Positions 2,420 through 20,000 are shown, numbered from the stretch's first letter. The stretch is 20,000 bases of DNA from an uncultured virus (IMG/VR IMGVR_UViG_3300007229_000009) (IMGVR_UViG_3300007229_000009); one strand, 5' to 3'. Notes: a model not told the origin generated them from the sequence alone. A program made the numbers and translations.

Positions 2420-2423
2420 TTGA

Positions 2424-2957: not shown

Positions 2958-2960
2958 TTT

Positions 2961-3215: not shown

Positions 3216-3245
3216 TGTATTAGATTTAATTTAAGTTATAAAAAA

Positions 3246-3253
3246 CAAATATA
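3246..3253 (-). promoter_or_regulatory. Bacteroidota-type -7 promoter element (TATATTTG)
   Basis: Exact TAnnTTTG match in the intergenic gap about 30 bp upstream of the ATG at 3215. Confidence 0.6.
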
Positions 3254-3264
3254 GTAAAATAATA

Positions 3265-3624: not shown

Positions 3625-3639
3625 TGTTTAATATTTTTA

Positions 3640-3647
3640 CAAAGATA
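3640..3647 (-). promoter_or_regulatory. Bacteroidota-type -7 promoter element (TATCTTTG)
   Basis: Exact TAnnTTTG match 15 bp upstream of the ATG at 3624. Confidence 0.6.
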
Positions 3648-3648
3648 A

Positions 3649-5973: not shown

Positions 5974-6004
5974 TATTATCTTTTTATAAATATATTAATT
6001 AAAC

Positions 6005-6484
6005 TTAAGGGTTACAAGCTCCTGTTCCTTGCACTGTTCCTGTACTTCCTGTTATTCTAAACCATCCAACTGGAGCATTAGGTCCACCGGGAAAAATTGG
6101 CCACTGTACACCTGTACCTCCATCTACTGGGCTTGATGTGGAGTTACTTAAATAAACTATATCACCAGTAGTGGGATAAGTACCACTCCCATCATGATAA
6201 TAGGTTGCTTGAGAAGATAATTGACTACACATGTCAGAAACAAATGCAGATGGATTACCAACTAAAAAAGCTGTTAAGGACACAAAGCTTCTTCCATAAA
6301 ATTCACTAAATGAATGTGGTGCACTTTGATTTACTGCTGGAGTAGCTGTAGCATATATTTTAACTAATGAACCAGTTTGTGGAGTTGAACTTGTGCCAGA
6401 CAAAGGTGCATTAGCAGTTGCCGATCTACTAGCTACAGTATTCATTTGACTTGCTTTTATTTCTCCTGAACTTGGTAAACTCAT
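6005..6484 (-). CDS. Putative fibre-tip adhesin or partner of fibre 6481..9195
   Basis: MSLPSSGEIKASQMN..PHSFSEFYG N-terminal module resembles small proteins that follow fibres ending ATGDVxAYSD; 4-bp ATGA overlap with the fibre gene. Confidence 0.55.
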   Translation of the reverse strand: MSLPSSGEIKASQMNTVASRSATANAPLSGTSSTPQTGSLVKIYATATPAVNQSAPHSFSEFYGRSFVSLTAFLVGNPSAFVSDMCSQLSSQATYYHDGSGTYPTTGDIVYLSNSTSSPVDGGTGVQWPIFPGGPNAPVGWFRITGSTGTVQGTGACNP

Positions 6485-9195: not shown

Positions 9196-9209
9196 ATTTA
9201 ATATTTATT

Positions 9210-9217
9210 CAAAGATA
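9210..9217 (-). promoter_or_regulatory. Bacteroidota-type -7 promoter element (TATCTTTG)
   Basis: Exact TAnnTTTG match 14 bp upstream of the ATG at 9195. Confidence 0.6.
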
Positions 9218-9244
9218 GTTAATTATAAGAATACATTTTTTTAA

Positions 9245-11803
9245 CTACATTTCGTTTATTCTAGATTCTAATGCTACTATTTTAGCATTTAGCTCTTGTA
9301 TTGTTTTAACAAGAACAGCAAACTCCATACCTACTTTCAAACCTTTACCATCTTTATATCCAGAAACAAGTTCACCTTGTTCTTTTAAAGGTACCCCATG
9401 CTCATCATGTGTTTTATATATTCTAGTATCTCTAGTATTAACCCAAGATGGAAAAACTTGTTCAACCTCTTGAGCTATTAATCCTATTTGTTTTTTGTTA
9501 TCACCTATAAAATTAAAATTTTTAACTTTAAGTGACAATATATCATCTAGTTTAGAAGTTGCTTCTACAATGTTTTCTTTTACCCTTTCATCTGAGCTAA
9601 TTGTACCGTAACTACCATTTATATTTTTTATATCTCCATCATCTTCAAAATCAATCATGTTTGCCATATAACCCCCAACGTTATATTTTCTCCATTTAAC
9701 AGACACATTACTCGTGCCTGCATCTGGACAATCATATAGCCATGTTCCTAAAGTTTGATTTAAACTTATTCTAGTTACCAGTAAAGCATTAACATAACCC
9801 CCAAAAAATATACTAGATGTACTGTGTAGACCTTCGGCTCCGATATATATACTGTTTGGTGTGGTTGCAGTGTCTACTATATTTAGTCCCCATGTGTTGC
9901 CACTGTTTGAAGGTTCGTAGCCAAAAATATATTCTTGACTGTGTGTGTGGCCGCTATGTATTTCACTAGCGATTATATTAACTGGACCATCAAAGTTTTT
10001 TGCAGCAGTAAAATAATTAGTGCTATTAGATAATTTACCTATTTGAGCTTTTAAAACTCCTGCGGCTTTAAACGTTATGTTTGATTGGTAGCTTGTTGAT
10101 GTTCCATTTGTGTCTGTATCATTTATATCTACATTTGCCAAGGCTCCAGACGCTGCAACTCCTAATCCTCCAATATTAACTATTCCTTCAGCTCTTATTT
10201 GTCCGTCTACATCTAATTTATATTGAGGCGAATCAGTTCCTATTCCTACGTTTCCTGCTCCTTTAACCACCATTCTTACAACACCACTTGTTCCTAAAAC
10301 AACAAAGTCTTGTCCATTTCTTGGCTCTACAACTAAATTACCAGATGTTCCTGTAAAAGGATATGCACCACCCGTATTTTCAGTAGAGTATATTGTAGAA
10401 TATGTTAAATTAGAAGCTGCTACTATATTATTTCTAATACCTATCCTACCACCATTTATATCTAATTTACTAGCAGGCGATGTTAATCCAATTCCGACGT
10501 TGCCGTTAGTATTGACTCTCATTTGTTCACCACCACCAGCAATAAATCTTATATAACCCCAACTGCTTGATGTTCTATTGTATGATTGCCAAGCTGTACC
10601 ACTTGCTTCAGAATATAATTCTAAATCACAATTAGAACCTGATTTTATAGCAAGTTCAGCATTTGCAGCATTAGCAGTTCCTATGCCAACTTTACCGTTA
10701 CTTTTGATACGCATTCTTTCTGTAGCACTTGTGCCTGTACCAAAAGTTAATGGAATGTCTGCAAGTGTTTGAAGTTGAACTATGGTAGCACTTGCATTTA
10801 ATTCTCCGTATCTTGTTCCATTTTGACCTAAATCAATTCCAGAATAAGAAGTTCCATTTATCTGTAACTTAGCAATACCAGTTCCTCCTATACCAACACT
10901 TCTACCATAAAATCTACCAAATATATCTCCGTCTGTAACTCCTATCCCGACATCCCCTGAAATGTCTATACGCATTCTTTCATTTGAACCAGCAGTTCTA
11001 AATACTAAATATCCAGACGCATTTGTTGCAGCTAAATAATTTGCACCTGCTCTTGCCATTCCTATAAATGCTGAATTTGTATCACCAATTGTAACATCAC
11101 CATCTAAAAATGATGTGCCTGTTATAGATATGTTTCCAGATGCTTGAAAGTTTGCTGTGAATATAGTATCACCATCAACATAAAAATCAGAATCAGAATC
11201 AATAGCAGTTGTGCCATTCCAAATTGCTAATCTATTATTAACACCAGTACCAGTTACGGTTCCTGTTGTTGGGGTTGTCCATGTAGGATTAGAGTTTCCA
11301 CCAGAAGTTAATACTTGACCAGATGAACCATAGTTAGTTCCTGTCGATCCGACAGATATAGCTCCAGTATCTGTAATTCTTAATCTTTCAACACCACTTG
11401 TCGTTCCAGAAGTTGCAGTTTCAAATCTAATATAGCCTCCATCTGCACCAGTAGCTGACTGTTCTAAATGAATTGATGATAGATACCCCCTACTACTTTC
11501 ACCTATTAACCTTCCTCCTGCTGTTGCTACATCTAATAATTGAGTGCTATGAATTTGTCCATTTTCATCGAACGTCACTTTACCTGCACTGCTAGTGCCG
11601 ATTGAAACACCATCTAATGATCCACTTAATGATTCACACTTAAATAACCAAGTTTCATTTCCTGTTTGTGTAATTTCTAGAAAAGTTCCATTATCGACTA
11701 AACTAGGAATACTAATAACATTATTAGTTTTATTTAAGGTGACGGTAGAGTTTATGGTTAAAGCACCATCTATGTCTCCGCTACTTAAGAATCTAATCGC
11801 CAT
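9245..11803 (-). CDS. Tail fibre with GNVGIG repeats and C-terminal S74-type chaperone
   Basis: GNVGIG and ERMRI repeats, GSSGQVLTSGG fibre motif; C-terminal SSDERVKENI..IGLIAQEVEQVFP..LVKTIQEL. Confidence 0.88.
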   Translation of the reverse strand: MAIRFLSSGDIDGALTINSTVTLNKTNNVISIPSLVDNGTFLEITQTGNETWLFKCESLSGSLDGVSIGTSSAGKVTFDENGQIHSTQLLDVATAGGRLIGESSRGYLSSIHLEQSATGADGGYIRFETATSGTTSGVERLRITDTGAISVGSTGTNYGSSGQVLTSGGNSNPTWTTPTTGTVTGTGVNNRLAIWNGTTAIDSDSDFYVDGDTIFTANFQASGNISITGTSFLDGDVTIGDTNSAFIGMARAGANYLAATNASGYLVFRTAGSNERMRIDISGDVGIGVTDGDIFGRFYGRSVGIGGTGIAKLQINGTSYSGIDLGQNGTRYGELNASATIVQLQTLADIPLTFGTGTSATERMRIKSNGKVGIGTANAANAELAIKSGSNCDLELYSEASGTAWQSYNRTSSSWGYIRFIAGGGEQMRVNTNGNVGIGLTSPASKLDINGGRIGIRNNIVAASNLTYSTIYSTENTGGAYPFTGTSGNLVVEPRNGQDFVVLGTSGVVRMVVKGAGNVGIGTDSPQYKLDVDGQIRAEGIVNIGGLGVAASGALANVDINDTDTNGTSTSYQSNITFKAAGVLKAQIGKLSNSTNYFTAAKNFDGPVNIIASEIHSGHTHSQEYIFGYEPSNSGNTWGLNIVDTATTPNSIYIGAEGLHSTSSIFFGGYVNALLVTRISLNQTLGTWLYDCPDAGTSNVSVKWRKYNVGGYMANMIDFEDDGDIKNINGSYGTISSDERVKENIVEATSKLDDILSLKVKNFNFIGDNKKQIGLIAQEVEQVFPSWVNTRDTRIYKTHDEHGVPLKEQGELVSGYKDGKGLKVGMEFAVLVKTIQELNAKIVALESRINEM

Positions 11804-11821
11804 GTGAGTAAAGTTAATGTT

Positions 11822-13312
11822 TTACACAGCGGTTACCAAAATCCTAGCTTCAGCAGTAGCTAAAGTTGTTGTAGTAGTTATAGTTACTTGTGTTGTACTG
11901 TTTCTAACTGTATCTGCATAAATTGTTTCGCCAGTAGACTTTAATACTAACTGTACAATTACATCTAATGTTCCTAAGTTATGAGTTACAATAATAGGGT
12001 TAGTTGAGCCATCTCCAATGTCAACTGCATAATTTAAATTTGTTCCTACACAAGATTGAACTTCAGTACAAAAGTCTGTTACTTGAGATGCTGTTATTGC
12101 GATAGCTGGTTCTGATGCTCCAGTAATAACACCTTTATCATCTACAGTAATTACGGTTGCTTTTGCTGCTGCACCATATGTATCTGCAGTTAATCCACCT
12201 TGAGTGTCTAAAGATACTGCTCCTGCCGCACTTACCGTAAGTCCTCCTGCTGTAGGAATGCTTACAATACCTGTAGTTGTTGCTGTTGCTATACCTATGT
12301 TATTTTGAACAGTAATCCAGTCAGTTAATGCTCCTGCCCCAGCTGCAGTTGCAGTTTGACATATTAATGTGTCACCAACCGCTACAGTTTCAGTATAAAA
12401 AGTACCATCTACAGTTACGACATAAGTATCACCGACTGCACATGCAATCTGTGTACCTCTACTATCTAAAAAGTCTGTTGTTCCTGCAACCTTACCGGTA
12501 CTACCATCAAATCCTCCTTTAAATTCTAAAAGTCCCGTTACAGCAGCATCAACATATGCTTTTGTTGCTGCGTCTTGTGCATCTGTAGGATTAGTTACAT
12601 TTATAAGTTTATTTGTATTAATATCTAAATTTGCGGCTGGAGCTCCTAGTAAGTTAATAGGTATTTCACTACTTTGTTTTCTTTTCTGAGCTGTTCCATC
12701 TAATACAATAAATTCATCAGTGTTAACCCAGGTTTGAGTCATGTCTGGTAAATCTTCTAATTGTAAGCTATATGTTACTGTATCTGTAGCACTAATTGTT
12801 GCTTCTAAACCTGTATTATGTGCAAATGTAATTGTGTCTCCATTTTCAACAGTCTCTGAAGTTGTACCATCACTTATATTAAAACTAGTTACGGGTTGTG
12901 TACCAGCAGTAACTGCTGTGATTTGTCCTTTTTTATTGTAACCAATACTAGTTGGGAATGCGACTGTGCCTGCTGCAGCACTAGGTGCATTATCATCCAT
13001 TGTAATTGTTACCTGTCTAGTAGCTCCCGCAGTTGTTGTTATAAACCCTGACTCACCAGCTACAGTTGCAGATTGACCATTTCCAATAGTTTGTGTTCCT
13101 GAATCTCCTGCTAATATCCACGTAACCATACCAGATGATATCGCTACCCATGTATTACTACCAGTGTGATAGTAAAGTTCATTTGTGTCAGTTCTGTATA
13201 TAAGTTGTCCTTCACCAGCTAGTCCACTTGGGTTAGATGATTGATTATCGACAATAAAGCCTTTCAGCTCATTATTATCAAGATTAATATTAGATAAATA
13301 TTTTATTGCCAT
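11822..13312 (-). CDS. Fibre or extender structural protein (no S74 chaperone)
   Basis: Thr/Ala/Gly-rich; fibre motif NPTDAQDAATKAYVD; N-terminus MAIKYLS shared with the three fibres; C-terminal VTHNLG domain. Confidence 0.75.
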   Translation of the reverse strand: MAIKYLSNINLDNNELKGFIVDNQSSNPSGLAGEGQLIYRTDTNELYYHTGSNTWVAISSGMVTWILAGDSGTQTIGNGQSATVAGESGFITTTAGATRQVTITMDDNAPSAAAGTVAFPTSIGYNKKGQITAVTAGTQPVTSFNISDGTTSETVENGDTITFAHNTGLEATISATDTVTYSLQLEDLPDMTQTWVNTDEFIVLDGTAQKRKQSSEIPINLLGAPAANLDINTNKLINVTNPTDAQDAATKAYVDAAVTGLLEFKGGFDGSTGKVAGTTDFLDSRGTQIACAVGDTYVVTVDGTFYTETVAVGDTLICQTATAAGAGALTDWITVQNNIGIATATTTGIVSIPTAGGLTVSAAGAVSLDTQGGLTADTYGAAAKATVITVDDKGVITGASEPAIAITASQVTDFCTEVQSCVGTNLNYAVDIGDGSTNPIIVTHNLGTLDVIVQLVLKSTGETIYADTVRNSTTQVTITTTTTLATAEARILVTAV

Positions 13313-13323
13313 AATTTTTTATT

Positions 13324-14049
13324 TTAATTAAATGTTACAACCCCAGTAAATCCTGGGTTTGCAGGTTGTGCAAATGTTAATGTTACTTGATTGTTATCAA
13401 CAAAATCAACATCGCAAAAAATTTCTACTCCAGGACTTGCAATTGTTCCTGTCAAAACTGTTACTGATGGAATTTTGTTCAAACCATGAACAACAGTGTA
13501 TTGATTTGATCCAGTTAATGCAAATGTAAAGTTTGCATCAGATGTCCCTGGAATACTTAGCAAAGATATAAAATAATCTTTGTTTGCTGTTAAGCCATTT
13601 TGACTGTTCTTATGGGTAACAGCTATGTCGTAAAAGTTTCCACTTGCATCTACTGTAGCGGTGTTCCAAGTAAAAATAGCCCATTTAGATATGTCATCAC
13701 ATTGAGTGACCAATACATCTGCACCTAATAATCCAGTTTCATAATACCCAGAAATGTCTGTTGTAGGTTCTACTAATGCATACTTGCTAATTTTAAATCC
13801 TGTTATTCCAGAAAACGATACATTGTCATTACCTTGTGGATTAAATGATAAACTTCCAGTCCCAACTGGAACAGTATTAGTATATACAAATCTTATAGCT
13901 TGTGACTGAACAGCTTCCCTGTTCATAAACTTAGCTACAGACTCTATAGTAAAGTTTTTAGTAGCAAAACTACTATTAGCGTCTGATCCAATCCAATAAT
14001 CGGAGCCAACTAGTTTAGTGTCTAAAGGGTAAGTACTAATTCTTGCCAT
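13324..14049 (-). CDS. Putative fibre-anchor structural protein
   Basis: MARISTYP..SDYWIGSDAN..TKNFTIESV N-terminus (paralog of 2424..2957); the C-terminal VVHGLN..VTLTF domain resembles the end of 11822..13312. Confidence 0.65.
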   Translation of the reverse strand: MARISTYPLDTKLVGSDYWIGSDANSSFATKNFTIESVAKFMNREAVQSQAIRFVYTNTVPVGTGSLSFNPQGNDNVSFSGITGFKISKYALVEPTTDISGYYETGLLGADVLVTQCDDISKWAIFTWNTATVDASGNFYDIAVTHKNSQNGLTANKDYFISLLSIPGTSDANFTFALTGSNQYTVVHGLNKIPSVTVLTGTIASPGVEIFCDVDFVDNNQVTLTFAQPANPGFTGVVTFN

Positions 14050-14064
14050 AATAATTTATTTTAA

Positions 14065-14072
14065 CAAAGTTA
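14065..14072 (-). promoter_or_regulatory. Bacteroidota-type -7 promoter element (TAACTTTG)
   Basis: Exact TAnnTTTG match 15 bp upstream of the ATG at 14049. Confidence 0.6.
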
Positions 14073-14091
14073 ATAAATCTTTTGCTTTGTT

Positions 14092-14499
14092 TTATTTCTT
14101 CCAAATCTTTGCAGTTTTTTCAATACCTCGAGAAGTAAAATAAAAACCTAGACTCATTATTACAATTTGTCCAAGCAGATCTACATACTGATTTGCTATA
14201 TTAAATTCTCCTATATTGCCATCTGATATAGCAAATAGTGTATATAATATTAAGCTAAAAATAGTAAGTAGAGGACGTATATTCTTCGAAAGCCATGAAT
14301 CCGATTGCATGTCTGCGGCATGACGTGATGTGATTTCTTTTTCTAGACTCAATTCATGAGACATAAAAATCTCTGTCATTTGTTTTTCAAACTCCGCCTT
14401 TTCATCTTTAGTCCTTACAAACTTATCAACTACTCCTCCTAGTTTTTCTGCGATAGAGACTCCAGCTCCACCAAACATTTTTGCAAATAATTTTTTCAT
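14092..14499 (-). CDS. Holin (GTA-type 3TM holin family-like)
   Basis: SDSWLSKNIRP motif followed by two hydrophobic segments and GFYFTSRGIEK; overlaps the endolysin gene by 4 bp. Confidence 0.8.
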   Translation of the reverse strand: MKKLFAKMFGGAGVSIAEKLGGVVDKFVRTKDEKAEFEKQMTEIFMSHELSLEKEITSRHAADMQSDSWLSKNIRPLLTIFSLILYTLFAISDGNIGEFNIANQYVDLLGQIVIMSLGFYFTSRGIEKTAKIWKK

Positions 14500-14909
14500 G
14501 TTAAATATTTATATTCTTCCTTTGCATCGAAACTAGGACATGCTTTTGTAGAAAAGTCTCTGTGACCATATATTTCTGCATTTGGATGAAATTTTTTTAA
14601 TAAATTTAATAAATCTAAAAGTGTAGATTTTTGTTCTTCAGTTCTTGTGTCTTCCCATTCATTCATATCTTCATCCATCCCCCCAATATAACATACACCT
14701 ATGCTAGATTTATTTTGTCCTTTACAATGAGCACCTTGAATGTTAACCATTCTTCCATACTCCATACTTCCATCAATATGAACAATATAATGATAACCAA
14801 TATCTGAGAAGCCTCTTTCTAAATGCCATTTCTTTATAGTATCAGCACTGAAATGTTTTCCTTTTGGAGTTGCTGAACAGTGGACAATAATTTTATCTAT
14901 GTTTCTCAT
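14496..14909 (-). CDS. Endolysin, N-acetylmuramoyl-L-alanine amidase (T7 lysozyme/Amidase_2 type)
   Basis: IIVHCSAT, DIGYHY, GAHCKG.N..SIGVCYIGG, GHRDF and KACPSF carry the Zn-binding His/His/Cys pattern. Confidence 0.95.
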   Translation of the reverse strand: MRNIDKIIVHCSATPKGKHFSADTIKKWHLERGFSDIGYHYIVHIDGSMEYGRMVNIQGAHCKGQNKSSIGVCYIGGMDEDMNEWEDTRTEEQKSTLLDLLNLLKKFHPNAEIYGHRDFSTKACPSFDAKEEYKYLT

Positions 14910-14913
14910 TTAA

Positions 14914-15234
14914 CTATTCTTTAGCAATAATATTTACTCTATCTTGTATTTCTTCTTTAGTCGCTGTTATTTTAAAACTTAAATTAGCAACCCATTGTCC
15001 TCTTGGTTTTCCATTTTTGTCTAATAAAATTATTATTGGAACAGATTTTATTTGTGCTTTGAGTGATGGGACTTGATCTTCTAATAATGCATATCTCACT
15101 TTACAATTCTGTATGCCCTTTAAATCAAAATTATTAGGTTGATTCCATTTTGCATTTATATGCATTAATGTTAAATCTTGTGCATTTATAAAACACAAAA
15201 AAAACACAAAAAAAACACATATTAAATTTTTCAT
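14914..15234 (-). CDS. Exported thioredoxin-like-fold protein lacking CxxC
   Basis: Signal peptide MKNLICVFFVFFLCFINA-Q; HINAKWN at the usual F-x-A-x-W-C position; IKSVPIIILL cis-Pro-like strand. Confidence 0.55.
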   Translation of the reverse strand: MKNLICVFFVFFLCFINAQDLTLMHINAKWNQPNNFDLKGIQNCKVRYALLEDQVPSLKAQIKSVPIIILLDKNGKPRGQWVANLSFKITATKEEIQDRVNIIAKE

Positions 15235-15542
15235 CTTTTTTTATAAACTTTATCTTCTAAATCTTTTATTGCTTCTTTATTTTCTTCAACATCTTCTTTT
15301 ATATTTTCAGTAAGCTTATCAATTGTAACTATGTTAGAACGAATTAACTCATCTTTAAATTTAAACTCCATTTGTTGTACAAACTCATCTCCAGAAAAAT
15401 TATCTATTTTGTTTTGTAATTCTGATATATCACTTTGTAAAGTAAACCACATACTAGCTAAAGAAATTGTTCCTGCTATAATTATGCCGATTGTTTTTAA
15501 ATCAAGCTGTACGTTAGTATCTTCACCAATCTTAGTTGCCAT
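15231..15542 (-). CDS. Single-TM coiled-coil membrane protein
   Basis: Hydrophobic segment TIGIIIAGTISLASMWFTL followed by a coiled coil; paralog of 15545..15820. Confidence 0.7.
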   Translation of the reverse strand: MATKIGEDTNVQLDLKTIGIIIAGTISLASMWFTLQSDISELQNKIDNFSGDEFVQQMEFKFKDELIRSNIVTIDKLTENIKEDVEENKEAIKDLEDKVYKKR

Positions 15543-15544
15543 GG

Positions 15545-15820
15545 TTATTTTTTATTTTTTATTATATAATCTTTTATGTATTTAATGTCATCTTTTATGT
15601 CAGAAATATCTTCTTTCATATTTTCGAAATCATTTTTTATTAACTCATCTTTATAAGACAATTCAATTTTCGTGACTTCTGGTAATGGCAATTGTTTTGC
15701 CAATGCAATATCAGCTTTAAGAGTAAAAAAAACAGCTAATAATGAACCTAATCCAAGTGCTCCAGTTATAAGTTCTTTTATTGATAAACTAAATTTACTT
15801 TGTGGATTAAATTTTTTCAT
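15545..15820 (-). CDS. Single-TM coiled-coil membrane protein
   Basis: LITGALGLGSLLAVFFTL followed by a coiled coil; shares FTLxxDI and KDELI with 15231..15542. Confidence 0.7.
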   Translation of the reverse strand: MKKFNPQSKFSLSIKELITGALGLGSLLAVFFTLKADIALAKQLPLPEVTKIELSYKDELIKNDFENMKEDISDIKDDIKYIKDYIIKNKK

Positions 15821-15899
15821 TATTATTATTTTACATAAGTGTAATTAAAAACTATTTCATCGTTTAACAAACTATTTGTTTGCGTGTAGTAATATTTAT

Positions 15900-16694
15900 T
15901 TACCATATTGCTATAAGTTTATCTGCTGTAGTTCCTGTTGCCATTACTTGTACACATTGTATTGGTAGGTAAGAACCTACTTGACAATTATGAAATGTAA
16001 TTATATCTCCAGCTACAGTTCTTACTGTTACATTATAAAACTGAGTAGCTATAGTAGTAGCTGCAGTTGCATCTCCTACATATATTAAACACCCTTCGTT
16101 GTTTGATGTTGTAGCCACACCTCCATTTGTGCCACCATATGCTGGATAATTAGAACCGCCTTCTGCTTGTGAATATATTCTAAAGTTGTCATCGTATGTA
16201 GAGTCTGTACCAAATATATTAGCACTTAAGGTTAATTCATCTACACCAACGACTGCTGAAACTGTAGCAATACCTGGATTGTCAGTATTTAAAACTATAT
16301 CTCCAGGCTTAACCCCTTTAGCTACAAAATCTATTTCATCATCTACTAACGCATTTTGTCTTACTATTAAATAGTTTTCGGGTGTTGCTTGAAAAATATT
16401 ACTACCAAAAGCTAATTGTGTGGCAGAATCTACAGCTGTTACTGCGGCATTTGCTGGAGTTGTTGTATTATAAACAACATCACCAACAACTACTGGAAGT
16501 GGTGGAGTTGTTGCTGTCCATGTTGCACCAGTGTCAACCAGTTTGTTTGTTACAACAGAAGTATTTACTCCATTGTCAACTTGATTGCCCACGCCTGTAG
16601 CTGCTATAAAGTTTGGATTTGGTATTGGAATTGTGTCACTTGGCACTACTATAAGTGCTTGTCCCGTGTTAACGGTAATTTTAGGATACGCCAT
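15900..16694 (-). CDS. Head-spike-base-like structural protein with an inserted tandem repeat
   Basis: N-terminal A..VVPSD and C-terminal IYVG..NVTVRTVAGD..TF.N..G..LPI....VMATGTTA..LIAIW resemble the RcGTA Rcc01079 spike base. The middle has two LVD..GD.V.NT..A.V.AV....L....NIF repeats. Confidence 0.55.
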   Translation of the reverse strand: MAYPKITVNTGQALIVVPSDTIPIPNPNFIAATGVGNQVDNGVNTSVVTNKLVDTGATWTATTPPLPVVVGDVVYNTTTPANAAVTAVDSATQLAFGSNIFQATPENYLIVRQNALVDDEIDFVAKGVKPGDIVLNTDNPGIATVSAVVGVDELTLSANIFGTDSTYDDNFRIYSQAEGGSNYPAYGGTNGGVATTSNNEGCLIYVGDATAATTIATQFYNVTVRTVAGDIITFHNCQVGSYLPIQCVQVMATGTTADKLIAIW

Positions 16695-16724
16695 TTTATT
16701 TAATTTAGAGGGTTAAAAATCTCT

Positions 16725-16871
16725 TTATCTATCGTAAGGAAACATACGGTTCAACGTATCTCTACGCTTGTTACAACCACAGTCGCCTTTCGTTACTGTT
16801 TCGACTACTTTTTTTATACCAGTAGCCTTGGTAAATTTTTCTATACTATCGCCTATGCCTCTTGATTTCAT
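16725..16871 (-). CDS. Basic microprotein with CGC motif (48 aa)
   Basis: Hand translated: MKSRGIGDSIEKFTKATGIKKVVETVTKGDCGCNKRRDTLNRMFPYDR. I recall a similar GxGD..TKATGIK..DCGC..LN..FPY family in Flavobacteria-type phages. Confidence 0.85.
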   Translation of the reverse strand: MKSRGIGDSIEKFTKATGIKKVVETVTKGDCGCNKRRDTLNRMFPYDR

Positions 16872-16873
16872 AA

Positions 16874-17014
16874 TTATTTTTTACAAACACACTGTGCGAC
16901 TGGACATTCTTTAACATCTATAATTAGTTTTGACACTAACCAGTTCCATTTACATAAAAGTTTTTTCCAAACTTTCTGAATCCAATGTCCTATCTTAACT
17001 AATAACTTGCCCAT
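16874..17014 (-). CDS. Cationic amphipathic Trp/Cys microprotein (46 aa)
   Basis: Hand translated: MGKLLVKIGHWIQKVWKKLLCKWNWLVSKLIIDVKECPVAQCVCKK; fills the gap between neighbours (0 and 2 bp spacers). Confidence 0.75.
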   Translation of the reverse strand: MGKLLVKIGHWIQKVWKKLLCKWNWLVSKLIIDVKECPVAQCVCKK

Positions 17015-17173
17015 TTATTTTTTCTTTTTAAACTCTTTTGCTAATGCAACCTGTCTTGCAGCCATTCTATCTTTGATTTCCTGTGATCTATCATGCCATT
17101 CTACGAAGCCTGCTGTAGGAGGATCTTGTTTAGTTATTTTTTTATTAACTAATTTGATTTTTTTCTTAGCCAT
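17015..17173 (-). CDS. Basic microprotein (52 aa)
   Basis: Hand translated: MAKKKIKLVNKKITKQDPPTAGFVEWHDRSQEIKDRMAARQVALAKEFKKKK; TAATG coupling to the upstream ORF. Confidence 0.8.
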   Translation of the reverse strand: MAKKKIKLVNKKITKQDPPTAGFVEWHDRSQEIKDRMAARQVALAKEFKKKK

Positions 17174-17328
17174 TATTTTTTATTTATTTTGCGCATTGTT
17201 TTTGCAAAATTATATTTTTTACTTCCTACTGGACAACTCTTGCTGCCAAATTTTTTCCCAGTGCAATCACCAAGAGTTCCTCTTCGTTTTGCTCCTTGAA
17301 AAACATTTTGTATAAAGTTCTTAGCCAT
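17173..17328 (-). CDS. Basic microprotein (51 aa)
   Basis: MAKNFIQNVFQGAKRRGTLGDCTGKKFGSKSCPVGSKKYNFAKTMRKINKK; start moved to the ATG at 17328 because of the TAATG overlap with the upstream stop. Confidence 0.8.
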   Translation of the reverse strand: MAKNFIQNVFQGAKRRGTLGDCTGKKFGSKSCPVGSKKYNFAKTMRKINKK

Positions 17329-17525
17329 TATTTTAAATGACCGTGAGTTTTCCAACTAGATGAATGTCTGTATGACATTCCAGAGTCACCTCCGTAAGAA
17401 TGTCCATATTCTTTTTTAGACATAGCTTTTGATTCATCTCTACGATCTTTATAAGATTGAGATTTTTTCCCATGCTTAGCACCTAAAGACTCATCTAGTC
17501 TTGAATTATATCCTTGTTTTTTCAT
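17328..17525 (-). CDS. Basic Ser/Gly/His-rich microprotein (65 aa)
   Basis: MKKQGYNSRLDESLGAKHGKKSQSYKDRRDESKAM...; preceded by a promoter motif. Confidence 0.8.
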   Translation of the reverse strand: MKKQGYNSRLDESLGAKHGKKSQSYKDRRDESKAMSKKEYGHSYGGDSGMSYRHSSSWKTHGHLK

Positions 17526-17545
17526 AATTTAAAAATTTATATATA

Positions 17546-17553
17546 CAAATATA
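17546..17553 (-). promoter_or_regulatory. Bacteroidota-type -7 promoter element (TATATTTG)
   Basis: Exact match; the surrounding 14-mer tacaaatatactaa (17544-17557) recurs at 18925-18938. Confidence 0.65.
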
Positions 17554-17561
17554 CTAATATT

Positions 17562-17903
17562 TTATTTATATTTTTTCTTCAACCTTCTAGCTATTCCTTC
17601 CGCCCTACTTGCAGATATTTTTTTTGTTCTAACTCTTCTATTACCATTTCTGGTTCTGGAAACATACTTAGTAAATTCACCATTGTTTTCGCTAACCTGT
17701 TTAAATTTACTTTTTTGTGTAGTTTTATTTCCTTTAGTTTTTGTTGTAGTTTTGCTGTATGAAACATTTGGCTTATTGCCATAAGCGGGAGTATTAGAGG
17801 ATTCAGAAACAGTTTTACTTTTCTTTTTCTTACCCATTTTTTGATTAGACTTGGTTGAAGAACGAAGTCTAATATATTCAGGATCATTTTTTTTCTTAGC
17901 CAT
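17562..17903 (-). CDS. Very Lys/Arg/Ser/Thr-rich basic protein (113 aa)
   Basis: MAKKKNDPEY start like its neighbours; tiles between adjacent genes. Confidence 0.75.
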   Translation of the reverse strand: MAKKKNDPEYIRLRSSTKSNQKMGKKKKSKTVSESSNTPAYGNKPNVSYSKTTTKTKGNKTTQKSKFKQVSENNGEFTKYVSRTRNGNRRVRTKKISASRAEGIARRLKKKYK

Positions 17904-17913
17904 AATTTTTTAT

Positions 17914-18189
17914 TTAACATCTCCAACGTCTACGAGCTGCACAAATTCTTTTTTCTGGAGTCTTAGAACAATTAATATTGTGCATACGCATTTGACCAGC
18001 AGACCTAGAGCAATAAGACTTTCTTCTTTTTGACCTCATTTTGCTAGGTTTCTTTTCAGTAACCGCAGTTTTTAGGTTTGATCCAGGATTGGCTCTTTTA
18101 TATGCAGCCACCCCTCTAGCAGTCATACCCGCACCAGATGATGTGGACCTATAGTTACCTCCTTTGCCTGTGGTTCTTGCTATAGGCAT
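17914..18189 (-). CDS. Basic phage protein, DUF6321-like (91 aa)
   Basis: GAGMTARGVAAYKRANPGSNLKTAVT..RRKSYCSRSAGQM..RICAARRRWRC matches my recollection of the DUF6321 pattern. Confidence 0.75.
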   Translation of the reverse strand: MPIARTTGKGGNYRSTSSGAGMTARGVAAYKRANPGSNLKTAVTEKKPSKMRSKRRKSYCSRSAGQMRMHNINCSKTPEKRICAARRRWRC

Positions 18190-18191
18190 AA

Positions 18192-18305
18192 TTATTTCTT
18201 TTTCTTAGGAACACAATTTGGAACTTCTTTTCCGTTCTTCATTTTCATTCCATATGCAATAAAACCTTTCCAACATGGGTTCTTCATTTTCTTTTTTCTA
18301 GCCAT
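18192..18305 (-). CDS. Basic microprotein with CWKG..VPNCVP motif (37 aa)
   Basis: Hand translated: MARKKKMKNPCWKGFIAYGMKMKNGKEVPNCVPKKKK. Confidence 0.85.
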   Translation of the reverse strand: MARKKKMKNPCWKGFIAYGMKMKNGKEVPNCVPKKKK

Positions 18306-18308
18306 AAT

Positions 18309-18491
18309 TTATTTTTTCAAGTGATCCATATTTTTAGGATATGTATTTAATCCAACTGTTGTCCATGCAGTTTTTTTAACCCCTTGTGGTAATAAATGAC
18401 TTTTAATTTTTTTTACTGGTTTTCTTTTTGATATAATTTTATCAATGTCTTTGTTTTTAAAATTGATACTGTTGTAATCTTTTTTAGCCAT
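18309..18491 (-). CDS. Basic microprotein (60 aa)
   Basis: MAKKDYNSINFKNKDIDKIISKRKPVKKIK...; 3-4 bp spacers to neighbours. Confidence 0.75.
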   Translation of the reverse strand: MAKKDYNSINFKNKDIDKIISKRKPVKKIKSHLLPQGVKKTAWTTVGLNTYPKNMDHLKK

Positions 18492-18495
18492 AATA

Positions 18496-18648
18496 TTAAT
18501 ATGATGAGTTCATTTTTTTCTCCATACCGTAGTTTGGATTATTTTTTACTTTACCTCCATTCATTTTTGCATATTGGTGAGCCTGTGCTTTACCTACTGC
18601 ATTGTATGGAAATACTTTATTACCAGATTTTGATTTTACTGTTGGCAT
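18496..18648 (-). CDS. Basic microprotein (50 aa)
   Basis: Hand translated: MPTVKSKSGNKVFPYNAVGKAQAHQYAKMNGGKVKNNPNYGMEKKMNSSY. Confidence 0.8.
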   Translation of the reverse strand: MPTVKSKSGNKVFPYNAVGKAQAHQYAKMNGGKVKNNPNYGMEKKMNSSY

Positions 18649-18673
18649 AATTATATTTTTAAAATATTAAACT

Positions 18674-18799
18674 TTATCTACCTTGTCCACGATAAGCCTT
18701 CTTGTAAGCATTTTGACTACGCGAAGCATTCTTACTATGAACACCAGGTCTTTTCTTTTTACCTTTCGACAAATAAGATACGAAATTATTTAAAGCCAT
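18674..18799 (-). CDS. Basic microprotein ending YRGQGR (41 aa)
   Basis: Hand translated: MALNNFVSYLSKGKKKRPGVHSKNASRSQNAYKKAYRGQGR. I recall the C-terminal YRGQG motif from other small phage proteins. Confidence 0.85.
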   Translation of the reverse strand: MALNNFVSYLSKGKKKRPGVHSKNASRSQNAYKKAYRGQGR

Positions 18800-18801
18800 T
18801 A

Positions 18802-18897
18802 TTAGATAATAACTCTTTTACTTTCTTTCTTTACGCTTGGCGATTTGACTGCAACTTTTTTTGGAGCTGCTTTTTTTACTACTTTTTTCTTAGCCAT
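18802..18897 (-). CDS. Histone-H1-like Lys/Ala/Pro microprotein (31 aa)
   Basis: Hand translated: MAKKKVVKKAAPKKVAVKSPSVKKESKRVII; first ORF after the promoter motif at 18927-18934. Confidence 0.75.
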   Translation of the reverse strand: MAKKKVVKKAAPKKVAVKSPSVKKESKRVII

Positions 18898-18926
18898 AAT
18901 TTTTGTTATTAAAATAATTATATTTA

Positions 18927-18934
18927 CAAATATA
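18927..18934 (-). promoter_or_regulatory. Bacteroidota-type -7 promoter element heading the microprotein operon (TATATTTG)
   Basis: Exact TAnnTTTG match in the 51-bp divergent intergenic gap. Confidence 0.65.
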
Positions 18935-18948
18935 CTAACTTTAATTTA

Positions 18949-19434
18949 ATGAAATCTAAAGGCGTCTATCAGCGCAAGGCAACATCAAGAATTACACCTT
19001 CCCACAACTATTTAAAATACTGGAGAGTCATTAGGTATTGGGTTAAGGCTAAGTACAAATTATCTACACCTGATCTTGAGATGTTATTGTTTTTATACAG
19101 TGAGGATATATTCAACAAAGAACAGTTTAAAAAGTATGAAGAGGTTATGAGTTGGGAGTATCCTAGGTTTGCTAGACTTCTTCGTGACGACTGGATTCAT
19201 GTTTGGAGAAAACGTGAGGGTAATAAGGCTACACTTTATGAGCTTACTTACAAGGCCAAGCGCATCATAACAATGATTTATAAAAAATTAAATGGTGAGG
19301 AGATTGCGGAGACTGCACACTCTAACCCTTTATTTAGAAATGATGCATCGTACATGGATAAGGTCTACCGTAATACGATTATTGAGATGAATGATTTTAT
19401 AAAACAACAACGACATCTCTCTCAAGAATTATAG
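18949..19434 (+). CDS. Putative MarR-like winged-helix DNA-binding protein
   Basis: KYKLSTPDLEMLLFLY...RLLRDDWIHVWRKREGNKATLYELTYKAKRII follows the MarR pattern (L-T/S..Q/D..L..L ... L...G.I.R......YxLT.KG). 161 aa; the only credible + strand gene. Confidence 0.55.
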   Translation: MKSKGVYQRKATSRITPSHNYLKYWRVIRYWVKAKYKLSTPDLEMLLFLYSEDIFNKEQFKKYEEVMSWEYPRFARLLRDDWIHVWRKREGNKATLYELTYKAKRIITMIYKKLNGEEIAETAHSNPLFRNDASYMDKVYRNTIIEMNDFIKQQRHLSQEL

Positions 19435-19654
19435 TATACTGTTTGTCGTTAATTATCATAGTATATCCAGACATCTTGTCATAGTATATTAGGTCCCCTT
19501 CTTCTATATCACTTACATTGGTCCCAGGCTTCACCACCTTACCTTTTTTATATCTAAAATCTTTTATGTCGTTTGCAGACAATAACAACCCAGAGTCAGT
19601 CTTTATCTCCTCTTCAATTGTGTCGATAATAATGTATTTATTTATAGGGATCAT
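19397..19654 (-). CDS. groES: Co-chaperonin GroES (phage-encoded)
   Basis: PINKYIII..EEIKTDSGLLL (mobile loop)..GKVVKPG..IEEGDLIYY....G..IINDKQYTIILERDVV. Confidence 0.92.
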   Translation of the reverse strand: MIPINKYIIIDTIEEEIKTDSGLLLSANDIKDFRYKKGKVVKPGTNVSDIEEGDLIYYDKMSGYTMIINDKQYTIILERDVVVVL

Positions 19655-20000
19655 GCTCGTTTATGTGTTATTATTGCATTAGTTGATAGTATTGTTGTGG
19701 CTACAGACACTGCATTGACCAGTGCATTCTTAGTTACTTTAAGTGGATCGATTACACCTAACACATACATGTCATCAACATCTTCATTCTTAACATCGTA
19801 TCCTATATTACCCCCCATATGTTGGAACTTACTAATTATCTCCGTCACATCTTTACCTGCATTAATAATAATTTGTTTTAATGGCACTTGTATTGCTTGG
19901 GCTAATATCTCACCAGCTACTTGTATGTTGGGTTCGTTCTCAAATGGCTTGTATGACTTAATATATTCTTTTAAAAACCTAGCACAATGAAATAGTGCCA
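19651..20000 (-). CDS. groEL: Chaperonin GroEL, C-terminal part; truncated by the right edge
   Basis: Frame is open to the edge: ALFHCA..AGEILAQAIQVPLKQIIINAG..GYDVK..DMYVLGVIDPLKVTKNALVNAVSVATTILST, matching the GroEL equatorial C-terminus. Confidence 0.95.
   Translation of the reverse strand, partial: ALFHCARFLKEYIKSYKPFENEPNIQVAGEILAQAIQVPLKQIIINAGKDVTEIISKFQHMGGNIGYDVKNEDVDDMYVLGVIDPLKVTKNALVNAVSVATTILSTNAIITHKRA

Follow-up and report, generated by a model that had tools for sequence, protein, structure and literature searches.

Twelve small basic genes in a variable island of Flavobacteriia phages, and their possible association with packaged DNA

The gene row and its signals

The window, a stretch of 20,000 nucleotides of DNA from an uncultured virus (IMGVR_UViG_3300007229_000009), carries on its minus strand (16725–18897) a row of 12 ORFs, m01 to m12, which encode proteins of 31–113 amino acids with net charges of +6 to +29 (Table 1). 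ORFs cover 96.6% of this interval in the sense direction versus 6.9% in antisense; the coverage in 1000 Markov shuffles had a mean of 15% and a maximum of 53%. From m01 to m12, the inter-gene gaps are 2, 25, 4, 3, 2, 10, 36, −1, −1, 0, and 2 nt, and both −1 gaps are TAATG overlaps (m08/m09 and m09/m10). A first reading, made from the sequence alone, had listed 12 mutually dissimilar ORFs. All were present at the lengths it gave, and no pair of the 12 proteins is similar at E < 0.01. Its count of seven ORFs below the ORF-track cut-off fits a limit of 60 amino acids if m09 is read from an upstream TTG, which gives a 60-residue protein. Together, the 12 proteins contain 187 Lys and Arg versus 37 Asp and Glu among 685 residues, and they are Lys-rich (141 Lys vs 46 Arg). 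Selection had been named as a check of the first reading, and 11 of the 12 genes are under purifying selection, with pN/pS values of 0.06–0.28 (0.12 when pooled; m04 had no ungapped pair and is the one gene without a value). No published description of such a cassette was found in the literature searched.

Table 1. Coordinates of the gene row, its promoter-like sites, and the flanking genes.
Feature	Position	Strand	Length (aa)	Net charge	Description
Regulator-like gene, upstream flank	18949–19434	+	161		Divergent orientation
Promoter-like site 1	18925–18938	-			Exact 14-mer TTAGTATATTTGTA, contains TATATTTG; 28 nt upstream of m01 ATG
m01	18802–18897	-	31	+11	Lys/Ala/Val-rich
m02	18674–18799	-	41	+11	C-terminal YRGQGR
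m03	18496–18648	-	50	+8	
m04	18309–18491	-	60	+12	
m05	18192–18305	-	37	+12	Free-standing PCWKG...VPNCVP module, two cysteines
m06	17914–18189	-	91	+22	Free-standing DUF6321 domain
m07	17562–17903	-	113	+29	Ser/Thr/Lys/Asn-rich, low-complexity
Promoter-like site 2	17544–17557	-			Exact 14-mer TTAGTATATTTGTA, contains TATATTTG; 18 nt upstream of m08 ATG
m08	17328–17525	-	65	+8	Island core gene
m09	17173–17328	-	51 (from ATG)	+13	Two cysteines
m10	17015–17173	-	52	+10	
m11	16874–17014	-	46	+8	Amphipathic cationic helix, then Cys cluster CPxxxCxC
m12	16725–16871	-	48	+6	Core gene; motif GxGD...CGC...LNxxFPY
Tail-fibre-like structural gene, downstream flank	15900–16694	-	264		MAYPKITV...

The two promoter-like sites had already been recognized by their shared 14-mer, and they are indeed exact copies (two matches vs 0.07 expected; 0 of 200 shuffles reached two). 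In the related record G001, an ATG is preceded by a third copy, which differs at one position. The TATATTTG within both copies fits the −7 element of the Bacteroidetes primary sigma factor, which is given as TAnnTTTG or TAHHTTTG in excerpts of PMC6847099, and the sites are predicted promoters; a strict pattern search for a −33 TTTG at canonical spacing matched neither of them. Because they resemble the host primary-sigma consensus, they carry no information on the timing of expression. The ORFs had been described as a single operon, but site 2 lies between m07 and m08, so the row may comprise two transcription units. The start contexts are A-rich, with A at position −3 in 11 of the 12 genes and a Shine-Dalgarno core in none, in agreement with the Kozak-like initiation described for Flavobacterium in the same excerpts (PMC6847099).

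A variable island at a fixed site

Conservation and turnover of the cassette were followed over 80 related loci with 578 island ORFs. The row is one state of a variable island that occupies a fixed site in ~60–66-kb phages of Flavobacteriia. Over these loci, the island holds 118 small-protein families (66 of them singletons), its length ranges from 0.37 to more than 3.7 kb, and m08, m12, and m11 form its core. The downstream flanking gene, which has a homologue in 74 of the 80 loci, matches phrog_12296 (tail fiber protein) at its C-terminus (1.3e-6). The upstream one has a homologue in 61 loci and matches phrog_17028 (1.7e-9) and phrog_12817 (transcriptional regulator; 4.2e-4), and its syntenic counterpart in MW202828 is annotated as a "repressor protein". 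The island heads a long co-directional block of tail-fibre, lysis, and packaging genes. In the cultured Cellulophaga phage phi46:3, the syntenic site holds two non-basic genes, which indicates that this virion type does not require the island. A Lys/Met-repeat protein and a small HExxH protein, absent from the window, are encoded in three of the relatives (L006, L008, and L012).

The Lys/Arg-rich character noted at the outset extends to the relatives. The basic charge is a property of the locus, because the non-homologous genes that replace one another in relatives are basic too: 88 of the 118 families are basic, and 80.6% of the island ORFs have a net charge per length of at least 0.1, compared with a median of −0.013 for the large ORFs of G001. 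G001 has 10 strongly basic small ORFs (net charge per length of at least 0.15) in the part that it shares with the window, and the cassette contains all of them. The gene of relative L012 at the m07 position, for example, encodes 123 residues with a charge of +35 and a composition like that of m07, with no detectable similarity between the two.

The members differ widely in their distributions. The core gene m12 is present in 74–78 of the 80 loci, and its profile search collected 3564 cluster representatives at E ≤ 0.001; its best AlphaFold2 model has three helices and a pLDDT of 85.6, and the other four models have values of 64–67. Relatives of m08 (pN/pS 0.16, 48 pairs) are encoded in 148 IMG/VR stretches, and the ESM Atlas groups m08 into clusters of 58–192 members from viruses only. 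The third core gene, m11 (42–43 loci; pN/pS 0.13–0.18), exceeds the other 11 in hydrophobic moment (0.67 at residues 3–20), and its product looks membrane-active rather than DNA-binding from its sequence. The other 11 proteins are polar and without an amphipathic or hydrophobic segment. Outside the core, m03 is present in 28 loci at E ≤ 1e-3 (pN/pS 0.28, 4 pairs), and m04 is present in 14, with gapped orthologues of 85% identity in L008 and L005. The remaining genes are rarer: m09 (pN/pS 0.07) and m10 (0.085) are found in three loci each, m07 (0.085, 1 pair) in two, and m01 (0.06, 2 pairs) only in close relatives, also in two. The gene m02 (pN/pS 0.13–0.20), whose product matches phrog_516 at 8.9e-4, has homologues in contigs of the pelagiphage type and a 42-aa counterpart in the cultured Pelagibacter phage HTVC010P.

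Many of the proteins start with MAKK or MARK, and the first reading had taken MAKK as a possible encapsidation tag. MA starts 7 of the 12 proteins, with MAKK or MARK in five of these seven. However, MA is also the commonest start of large ORFs in G001 (16 of 61), none of the core genes m08, m11, and m12 has it, and only 57 of the 578 island ORFs start with MAK or MAR. We therefore set this candidate aside.

Modules shared with virion and head proteins

Two adjacent genes, m05 and m06, connect the row with larger phage proteins. The suspected DUF6321-like pattern in m06 proved to be a clear match to Pfam DUF6321 (PF19846; 1.1e-14, 55.3 bits vs a cut-off of 28.5), in which residues 19–89 align with positions 5–72 of the 72-position profile. 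Among 31 aligned sequences, C60, R88, W89, and C91 are invariant; the C-terminal basic helix pair and the terminal RRRW-x-C are conserved, and many relatives miss both middle cysteines together. The AlphaFold2 model (pLDDT 67) has three helices behind a disordered N-terminal segment of 20 residues. No DNA-binding fold emerged when the m06 and m12 models were used in fold searches. Relatives of m06 are encoded in at least 588 IMG/VR stretches and in 39 phage records. HTVC010P, too, has a free-standing DUF6321 protein, of 93 aa.

A connection to virus particles is found in cyanophages. The C-terminal DUF6321 domain of S-CREM2 ORF137 (490 aa) is 67.6% identical to m06, and this protein is listed in the proteome of CsCl-purified virions with 4 peptides and 4.1% coverage (PMC10665884, Table 3). 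ORF137 is overall acidic (64 Lys and Arg vs 84 Asp and Glu), and the detected peptides may come from outside its DUF6321 part. In S-SCSM1, ORF29 (517 aa) contains DUF6321 at 3e-22, and its product is named "virion protein" in the record. Both genes lie between terS and terL. The cyanophage DUF6321 proteins are single, overall acidic chains of 430–700 residues with an N-terminal DUF5661, and many have an m05-type module upstream of DUF6321, whereas the island has separate 37-aa and 91-aa genes far from the terminase gene. The order of m05 and m06 matches that of the modules in the fused proteins. Of 71 long DUF6321 proteins, 8 have an m05 module ahead of this domain, and the succession DUF5661, m05 module, and DUF6321 is found in many of 123 proteins that contain the module. 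In addition, an 80-aa island gene of L012 is fused to DUF6321 in P0057.

The m05 module consists of 27 residues with two cysteines. It is found in 2 of the 80 family loci, aligns to internal parts of long PHROGs, and was detected by tblastn in 64 phage records, among them cyanophages and 10 haloarchaeal viruses; examples are HSTV-1 gp13, HRTV-4 gp37, HCTV-1 gp27, and S-ShM2 gp182. In HSTV-1 gp13, which is annotated as "head maturation protease" and encoded between the "tower" and major head protein genes, the module lies just after an XkdF-type protease domain (Peptidase_S78_2). The gene for HRTV-4 gp37 is located between the portal/MuF and major capsid protein genes. The modules of these two prohead protease/scaffold proteins, encoded between portal and major capsid genes, share the PCW-x-GY...VPNCVP pattern and are 52–56% identical to m05 over 27 residues, but they are embedded in acidic proteins of 473–527 residues, whereas m05 stands alone with Lys-rich flanks.

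The context of free-standing DUF6321 genes was surveyed in 13 distant loci, with scans of 58 of their 97 neighbouring ORFs. Head or packaging genes are nearby in five, including L077, where the portal and major capsid genes flank it; lysis genes are nearby in three, auxiliary metabolic genes are adjacent in four, and a DNA-metabolism gene is adjacent in one.

Possible roles of the island proteins

The most likely role of the row's proteins, which we propose tentatively and by analogy, is that they enter the capsid together with the DNA or attach to it. The genes are real and under selection, their basic charge is maintained across non-homologous replacements, and their site is fixed. Free-standing m05 and m06 correspond to two modules of larger proteins that are reported from purified cyanophage virions (S-CREM2 ORF137 and S-SCSM1 ORF29), and the m05 module is also linked to the head interior through HSTV-1 gp13 and HRTV-4 gp37; the fused and split forms of both and the head or packaging neighbours of DUF6321 genes point in the same direction. 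The families are spread over phages of different host phyla, which favours a generic target, for example DNA, over a host-specific one. In such a mechanism, the Lys and Arg side chains would offset the phosphate charge of the packaged DNA, and the proteins would be expressed late and enter the host together with the genome. The variable members may also shield the incoming DNA or interfere with the host.

Precedents exist in other particles. In phage T4, approximately 1000 internal protein molecules are embedded in the packaged DNA with lysines contacting phosphates, and the T-even internal proteins are injected with the DNA and described in excerpts of the source as "a highly diverse set" encoded at variable loci (PMC3012670). 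These polymorphic, basic, DNA-embedded proteins are the closest working analogue. IPI, IPII, and IPIII are likewise small basic proteins encoded at a variable locus, as the Lys-rich island is hypervariable at a fixed site, but the island proteins are smaller (31–113 aa), far more numerous, and candidates for packaging. Searches of Pfam, PHROGs, and NCBIfam assigned none of the 12 to a family that is labelled an internal protein. Whereas the T4-type proteins share an N-terminal capsid-targeting sequence of ~10 residues that is cut by the prohead protease, the N-termini of the island proteins have no more in common than MA(K/R)K, which 5 of the 12 carry. In eukaryotic dsDNA viruses, adenovirus VII and mu, baculovirus P6.9, and the basic proteins of chlorella viruses are described in the excerpted sources as short, highly basic, DNA-condensing, and particle-borne (PMC4189039, PMC12159748, and PMC3281028). 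Such protamine-like core proteins are one or few per virus and Arg-rich, whereas those of the island are many, variable, and Lys-rich, with no homology between them.

Several findings count against packaging. The first reading had suggested capsid core proteins; the part of this that stands is indirect, through the reports of DUF6321-bearing proteins in two cyanophage virion proteomes and through the haloarchaeal-virus prohead protease gene. Both virion reports concern large, overall acidic fusion proteins, and none of the free-standing members has been found in a virion. The virion link covers 2 of the 12 genes (m05 and m06), and the core genes m08, m11, and m12 are outside it. An N-terminal targeting sequence common to the 12 proteins was not found. 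PHROGs recognized no prohead protease among 12 head-region proteins of G001, a scan that left out four ORFs crossing locus boundaries and that distant proteases could escape. The character of m11, the absence of basic genes in phi46:3, the metabolic neighbours of DUF6321, and the lack of a DNA-binding fold in the fold searches also weigh against it.

A broader version of capsid loading is somewhat unlikely, but carries real weight. Ocean phages of unrelated hosts (SAR11, cyanobacteria, and Flavobacteriia, with haloarchaea for one module) would draw on a common, exchangeable set that comprises dozens to hundreds of tiny polycationic modules, which occur as single genes, paired fusions, or one large virion protein, are loaded into the capsid as protamine-like injectable chromatin, and are reshuffled at a hot spot in each lineage. 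If so, they would constitute a general, undescribed layer of the composition of tailed-phage particles, one that escapes both standard tryptic proteomics and gene callers.

It is rather unlikely, but deserves serious weight, that the proteins are unpackaged and act inside the cell as small nucleic-acid-binding or anti-defence effectors, which might, for instance, coat phage DNA, compact the host nucleoid, or block nucleases. In that case, an arms race with host defences would underlie the turnover. A hypervariable island beside a divergent regulator is the typical layout of accessory and counter-defence islands, and the hypervariability seen here at a fixed site, the adjoining regulator-like gene, the host-like promoter boxes, and the dispensability in phi46:3 all agree with this. 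However, the presence of the same families in phages of SAR11, cyanobacteria, and Flavobacteriia, and of m05 in haloarchaeal viruses, argues against host-specific protein targets, and the DUF6321 and m05 modules are tied to virion and head genes. To our knowledge, moreover, the small DNA mimics that counter restriction or CRISPR are acidic rather than basic.

Unlikely too is the absence of any common function. The site would then be an insertion hot spot for unrelated small mobile genes, moved in part by homing endonucleases, with roles as different as DNA binding, membrane activity, and redox chemistry. The mutual dissimilarity of the 12 proteins, their separate distributions (from m12 down to m01, m05, and m07 in two loci each), and the amphipathic, Cys-rich m11, which is unlike the other 11, are consistent with such a site. 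HNH endonucleases also recur, with one gene occupying the island in MW202828, one domain fused to DUF6321 (P0007), and one inserted beside an m12-like gene (P0305), and an m12-like domain is fused to thioredoxin in P0238. Random accumulation, however, predicts neither the strongly basic charge of most families and ORFs against the near-neutral median of large ORFs nor the gene fusions between island members that are seen in other phages.

A role as lysis accessories is improbable, whether for the whole set or for part of it. The proteins would then be cationic peptides, released at the end of infection, that act on the holin as regulators or destabilize the outer membrane. The amidase and holin genes lie 1.8–2.6 kb downstream of the island on the same strand, the m02-like genes of HTVC010P stand among genes for holin-like membrane proteins and an M15 peptidase, and in the second part of G001, another m02-like gene stands immediately behind a holin gene. 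The lysis neighbours of DUF6321 and the amphipathic cationic helix of m11 fit as well. Nevertheless, the other 11 proteins have no such segment, the cyanophage DUF6321 genes are in the packaging region, and we know of no lysis system that uses nearly as many as 12 such peptides. Disruptin-like peptides, which disrupt the outer membrane, have a cationic amphipathic helix and are encoded in the lysis cassette; in the row, a strong amphipathic segment is present in m11 only, and m11 is 2.0 kb upstream of the amidase gene, outside that cassette. Finally, an association with host ribosomes, in which the proteins would mimic or supplement small ribosomal proteins, is very improbable. None of the 12 proteins matches ribosomal families at E ≤ 1 in Pfam or NCBIfam, and the m06 and m12 models retrieved no significant ribosomal-protein match in fold searches. 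Some ribosomal proteins are encoded by marine phages; the likeness that the first reading had pointed out is one of size and charge only.

Small basic genes and their turnover at a fixed site

The twelve small ORFs of the island (m01–m12, numbered along the coding strand) are all present on the minus strand, and their lengths, consecutive tiling, and positive charges agree with those given by the sequence-only reading, which had described them as cationic microproteins. From m01 to m12, successive ORFs are separated by 2, 25, 4, 3, 2, 10, 36, −1, −1, 0, and 2 nt, and both −1 values are TAATG overlaps. ATG ORFs of at least 30 aa cover 96.6% of 16725–18897 on the sense strand and 6.9% on the antisense strand, whereas coverage averaged 15% and peaked at 53% in 1000 Markov shuffles. 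The proteins contain 187 Lys and Arg versus 37 Asp and Glu in 685 residues, and pairwise comparison of the twelve shows no similarity at E < 0.01.

The island genes are real. Nei-Gojobori counts on ungapped pairs between the window genes and orthologues from related viral contigs gave, for 10 of the 12 genes in a first set of relatives, 389.5 synonymous versus 186.5 non-synonymous differences (pN/pS 0.12 when pooled). In a second set of 80 loci, the ratio was 0.06–0.28 for the 11 measurable genes, indicating purifying selection; the orthologues of m04 are all gapped, with 85% identity. Contigs from four RNA libraries of three studies cover parts of the island, and one of them (557 nt) matches 16825–17381 with 0 differences. 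Because these contigs are strandless and may derive from carry-over DNA, they are weak evidence and no proof of transcription, and bins without cover are uninformative.

An A occupies position −3 in 11 of the 12 starts, and a Shine-Dalgarno core was found within 20 nt of none of them. Judged from the sequence, this is the Kozak-like initiation context that is described for Flavobacterium in PMC6847099. On the basis of the same paper, we infer that an A-rich initiation region is a simpler explanation for the MAKK starts, which had been suggested as a possible packaging tag. Such a tag is not supported: MA is the commonest start of the large ORFs in G001, a related 89-kb IMG/VR record (16/61), the three core genes of the island start with MKKQ, MGKL, and MKSR, and of the 578 island ORFs in the family as a whole, MAK or MAR opens only 57.

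The 14-mer TTAGTATATTTGTA, previously noticed at two sites, occurs in exactly two copies, at 17544–17557 and 18925–18938, both on the minus strand (0.07 copies expected; two were reached in 0 of 200 shuffles). It contains TATATTTG, which fits the −7 element of the Bacteroidetes primary sigma factor, given as TAnnTTTG and refined to TAHHTTTG in PMC6847099, and the two sites appear promoter-like. A degenerate search of G001 with up to three mismatches yielded 64 hits compared with 51 in shuffles; therefore, only exact and one-mismatch copies of the 14-mer are meaningful.

In close relatives, the flanks are kept and the small genes are exchanged. Among three related loci, L008 retains 11 of the 12 window genes, L006 8–9, and L012 five. 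The substitutes include Lys/Met-repeat proteins in three sizes (43, 76, and 232 aa), a protein of 80 aa with two cysteines, others of 57, 61, 62, and 79 aa, and a 112–116-aa protein with an HExxH motif. These exchanged-in proteins are basic except for the HExxH protein, which is near-neutral (+3 to +4). The Lys/Met-repeat gene (43–232 aa, up to +64) is followed by a directly adjoining HExxH gene.

To describe the family, 80 loci were fetched via m08, out of 148 confirmed stretches, and island ORFs were called from ATG starts at 28 aa or longer with overlaps removed greedily. A tail-fibre-like flank is present in 74 of these loci and a regulator-like flank in 61; in the 56 with both, the interval between them ranges from 0.37 to at least 3.7 kb (3-kb flanks were fetched). 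The blocks hold 2–14 small ORFs (median 6.5), 578 in total, which group as 118 families (88 basic; 66 represented by a single ORF). The net charge is positive in 91% of the ORFs, and charge per length is 0.1 or more in 80.6%. The island is variable, and its site is fixed. The core consists of m08, m12, and m11. At the position of m07, L012 has a gene (123 aa, +35) with similar charge and composition and no detectable sequence similarity to it. All 10 strongly basic small ORFs in the window-shared part of G001 lie inside the island, and the large ORFs of this record have a median charge density of −0.013. In Cellulophaga phage phi46:3, two non-basic genes stand at the syntenic site, so that the island is an accessory feature of one sub-lineage.

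Small genes of the island and a gene pair of related islands (occurrence among the 80 loci fetched via m08)
Feature	Coordinates	Length (aa)	Net charge	Occurrence
m01		31	+11	2/80
m02		41	+11	12/80
m03		50	+8	28/80
m04		60	+12	14/80
m05		37	+12	2/80
m06		91	+22	10/80
m07		113	+29	2/80
m08		65	+8	80/80, by construction
m09		51	+13	3/80
m10		52	+10	3/80
m11	16874-17014	46	+8	42-43/80
m12		48	+6	74-78/80
Lys/Met-repeat + HExxH pair	L006 4031-4716			not in window
Lys/Met-repeat + HExxH pair	L008 3010-3480			not in window
Lys/Met-repeat + HExxH pair	L012 2705-3759			not in window

An even cysteine count was considered as a sign of disulfides; it is true for the twelve proteins (0, 2, or 4 Cys) and fails across the families, where the medians are 5 for m11 and 1 for m03. 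One RNA-library contig (run X16, depth 10.6) runs straight from 17526 to 18495 and lacks the 968 bases with m04–m07. It looks like a natural island variant lacking these genes, in line with the turnover in relatives. DNA near-identical to 16725–18950 (at least 0.78 of sampled words) occurs in 14 DNA runs from about 10 studies, which are labelled as freshwater, seawater, or marine metagenomes; nine of these rows may be the source sample. From these varied labels, the phage or its close kin seems to be widespread across salinities.

Relatives of the island proteins in other phages

The DUF6321-like pattern noticed earlier corresponds to a DUF6321 domain in m06 (Pfam, 1.1e-14). Relatives of m06 are encoded in at least 588 IMG/VR stretches, and the domain is present in 39 deposited phages, including 17 pelagiphages, 12 Synechococcus phages, and 6 Microcystis phages. 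In T4-like cyanophages, it forms the C-terminal domain of larger proteins. ORF137 of S-CREM2 (490 aa, acidic overall) shares 67.6% identity with m06 over its last 71 residues, and its gene is located in the terS-terL interval. Table 3 of PMC10665884 lists ORF137 in the proteome of CsCl-purified virions, with 4 unique peptides and 4.1% coverage. ORF29 of S-SCSM1 (517 aa, DUF6321 at 3e-22) is likewise located between terS and terL and has the record product name 'virion protein'; for this phage, 45 proteins detected by mass spectrometry are marked in Figure 2 of PMC9602691. Of 71 longer DUF6321 proteins, 11 were scanned; 10 of them carry the domain at the C-terminus, linked to DUF5661, DUF5872, or a small HNH_3 domain. 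In the matched protein P0057 (168 aa), the 80-aa island gene of L012 is fused to DUF6321.

The AlphaFold model of m06 (pLDDT 67) comprises three helices, with the first 20 residues disordered. Foldseek found no match to it in the PDB (best row, E = 9.4), a viral structure library returned mainly DUF6321 proteins and nothing else informative, and the best hit of VIA-align among 48,161 chains (Z = 4.5) was an uninformative helical hairpin. In the alignment of relatives, Cys60 and Cys91 are invariant, and Cys74 and Cys83 are present together or absent together. This co-occurrence suggests a paired use of the latter two, as a disulfide or a metal site.

The m05 protein is a free-standing form of a 27-residue module, PCW-x-GY...VPNCVP, which tblastn located in 64 phage records. 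It lies upstream of DUF6321 in 8 of the 71 long DUF6321 proteins, and a module search with P0010 retrieved 123 proteins of 316–1008 aa, many with the order DUF5661, module, and DUF6321. Because the module precedes DUF6321 in these fusions, the adjoining genes m05 and m06 stand in the order that the domains have there. Haloarchaeal tailed viruses carry the module as well. In gp13 of HSTV-1 ('head maturation protease'), it occupies residues 236–262, just after a Peptidase_S78_2 (XkdF-type) domain at 105–217 (8.7e-22). In gp37 of HRTV-4, it spans residues 60–86, and the gene is located between those for portal/MuF and the major capsid protein. Another carrier is gp27 of HCTV-1.

Pelagiphage-type contigs and Pelagibacter phage HTVC010P group m02-like and DUF6321 genes with other very basic mini-genes; HTVC010P encodes a free-standing 93-aa DUF6321 protein and a 42-aa m02-like protein. 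The m02-like mini-proteins end with (Y/N)(K/R)GQG(K/R) in G001 (63139–63680) and HTVC010P (locus L001, 4163–4291), two unrelated phages in which their genes adjoin holin-like or M15 peptidase genes, an arrangement not seen in the window. A tblastn search of the cultured-phage collection with m08 and m02 gave no match, probably because of the low-complexity filter, and their relatives were found by local unfiltered searches.

The m12 family profile matches 3564 cluster representatives at E ≤ 0.001, mostly of 50–140 aa. The few long forms scanned include one HNH/NUMOD4 protein and one thioredoxin fusion. In P0305, HNH/NUMOD4 stands next to an m12-like gene and a partial duplicate of it, an arrangement that looks like a homing endonuclease inserted beside the gene. 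The HNH associations may therefore reflect mobility rather than function, and HNH fusions were set aside as evidence for DNA binding. The best m12 model (pLDDT 85.6) has three short helices, and the other four reach 64–67. Foldseek found no PDB match for m12, and no solved structure matched the m06 or the m12 model significantly. In the ESM Atlas, m12 and m08 gave only virus-only clusters of hypothetical proteins, and Pfam gave nothing above a curated cut-off for 12 representatives of other island families. The m11 protein is different in kind from the other eleven and is present in about half of the islands of the family. Its amphipathic cationic helix (moment 0.67) is rich in Trp and Lys and precedes a conserved CPxxxCxC cluster; the peptide may act on membranes or bind metal.

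Possible roles of the island proteins

What unites the island proteins is physical: they are small and strongly positively charged, and non-homologous replacements keep both properties. Its members are repeatedly fused to each other in other phages, and two of them (m05 and m06) have fused homologues in reported virion proteins or head-assembly genes. Because the families span host phyla, a generic polyanionic partner is argued for rather than a host-specific protein. The best fit, which we put forward tentatively and with more doubt than confidence, is that the island proteins travel in the capsid with the DNA. They would be loaded into the capsid and carried along with the DNA, after the model of the T-even internal proteins. 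About 1000 copies of internal protein are embedded in the packaged DNA of T4 according to PMC3012670, which reports lysine-phosphate contacts and a set that is highly diverse between phages; protein within the packaged DNA of T4 has also been sought by particle imaging (cryo-EM or bubblegram; PMC7697877). The T4 proteins are defined by an N-terminal targeting sequence, whereas the island proteins have neither this sequence nor homology to them, and no membership of that family is claimed. We file it, as a sequence-based candidate, beside phage-encoded basic proteins associated with packaged DNA.

The context of free-standing DUF6321 genes was surveyed at 13 diverse distant loci, with 58 of 97 neighbouring ORFs of at least 90 aa scanned against PHROGs. 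A head or packaging gene is nearby at five of the loci, and at one locus (L077) the DUF6321 gene is flanked by portal and major capsid genes. Lysis genes are nearby at three loci, auxiliary metabolic genes at four, and a DNA-metabolism gene at one. Our caution about the capsid has several grounds. The virion support comes from 2 of the 12 genes and the proteome hits are large acidic fusions; m08, m11, and m12 have no virion link and the proteins share no targeting sequence; and none of the 12 head-region proteins of G001 that were compared with PHROGs was called a prohead protease.

The proteins might instead act within the cell as nucleic-acid-binding or counter-defence effectors, which we consider unlikely. 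The island might also be a hot spot where unrelated mobile mini-genes gather, an unlikely explanation given the charge kept by the replacements. A role as lysis accessories is very unlikely. The island does head the lysis and structural region, as had been stated. Ribosome binding is improbable in the extreme, since the supposed likeness to ribosomal proteins disappeared in profile searches.

Full-text searches, which also covered protamine-like phage capsid proteins, turned up no account of what DUF6321, DUF5661, DUF5872, PF19846, or PF18905 do (one paper mentions DUF5872) and none of such arrays, in line with the earlier reading. If the island proteins are packaged, many abundant marine phages hold a protein component that has escaped notice, because the genes are too short for the usual ORF cut-offs and because trypsin would cut Lys/Arg-rich proteins to very short peptides. 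Packaging would bear on how tightly the DNA is packed, on what first enters the host, and on the encounter with host nucleases, and would provide a function for very large families that now have none, DUF6321 and m12. Even if unpackaged, the island is a clear natural case of selection for positive charge across non-homologous replacements. The cultured carrier HTVC010P makes the question open to direct testing.

Phage lineage and gene order

For the large terminase, deposited phages gave 87 matches. The cultured ones are all phages of Flavobacteriia (68 of Flavobacterium, 15 of Cellulophaga, 2 of Tenacibaculum, and 1 of Maribacter), and the closest relative, with 71% identity, is MW202828, a circular 60.85-kb metagenomic podovirus. 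Along the coding strand, GroEL and GroES are followed by a divergent 161-aa regulator-like gene and the island, then by a 264-aa tail-fibre-like gene, membrane proteins, an amidase, and a holin, and finally by four large tail-fibre genes and the large terminase.

The window is 99.9–100% identical to parts of G001 (89.3 kb), which aligns in two blocks only, 1–5696 and 10707–20000; the segment 5697–10706, with repeat-rich tail-fibre genes, is missing from that record. Because of this two-block match and the doubled portal genes and holin/endolysin sets, G001 probably combines two phages as a chimera, or else the genome of the window is a differently joined circle of about 66 kb.

The phage encodes GroEL and GroES (19397–19998), and a second GroES-labelled protein (188 aa, phrog_13932) is encoded at 1629–2195, just upstream of the terminase region; two GroES-like genes are likewise annotated in phi46:3. 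The four consecutive tail-fibre-like proteins at 3649–13312 (774, 904, 852, and 496 aa) share the N-terminal sequence MAI(K/R)(I/F/Y)LS, and the three largest have common GNVGIGT repeats and a similar C-terminal segment with a coiled-coil-like end. Judged by eye, the four look like a paralogous set with a common N-terminal adaptor.
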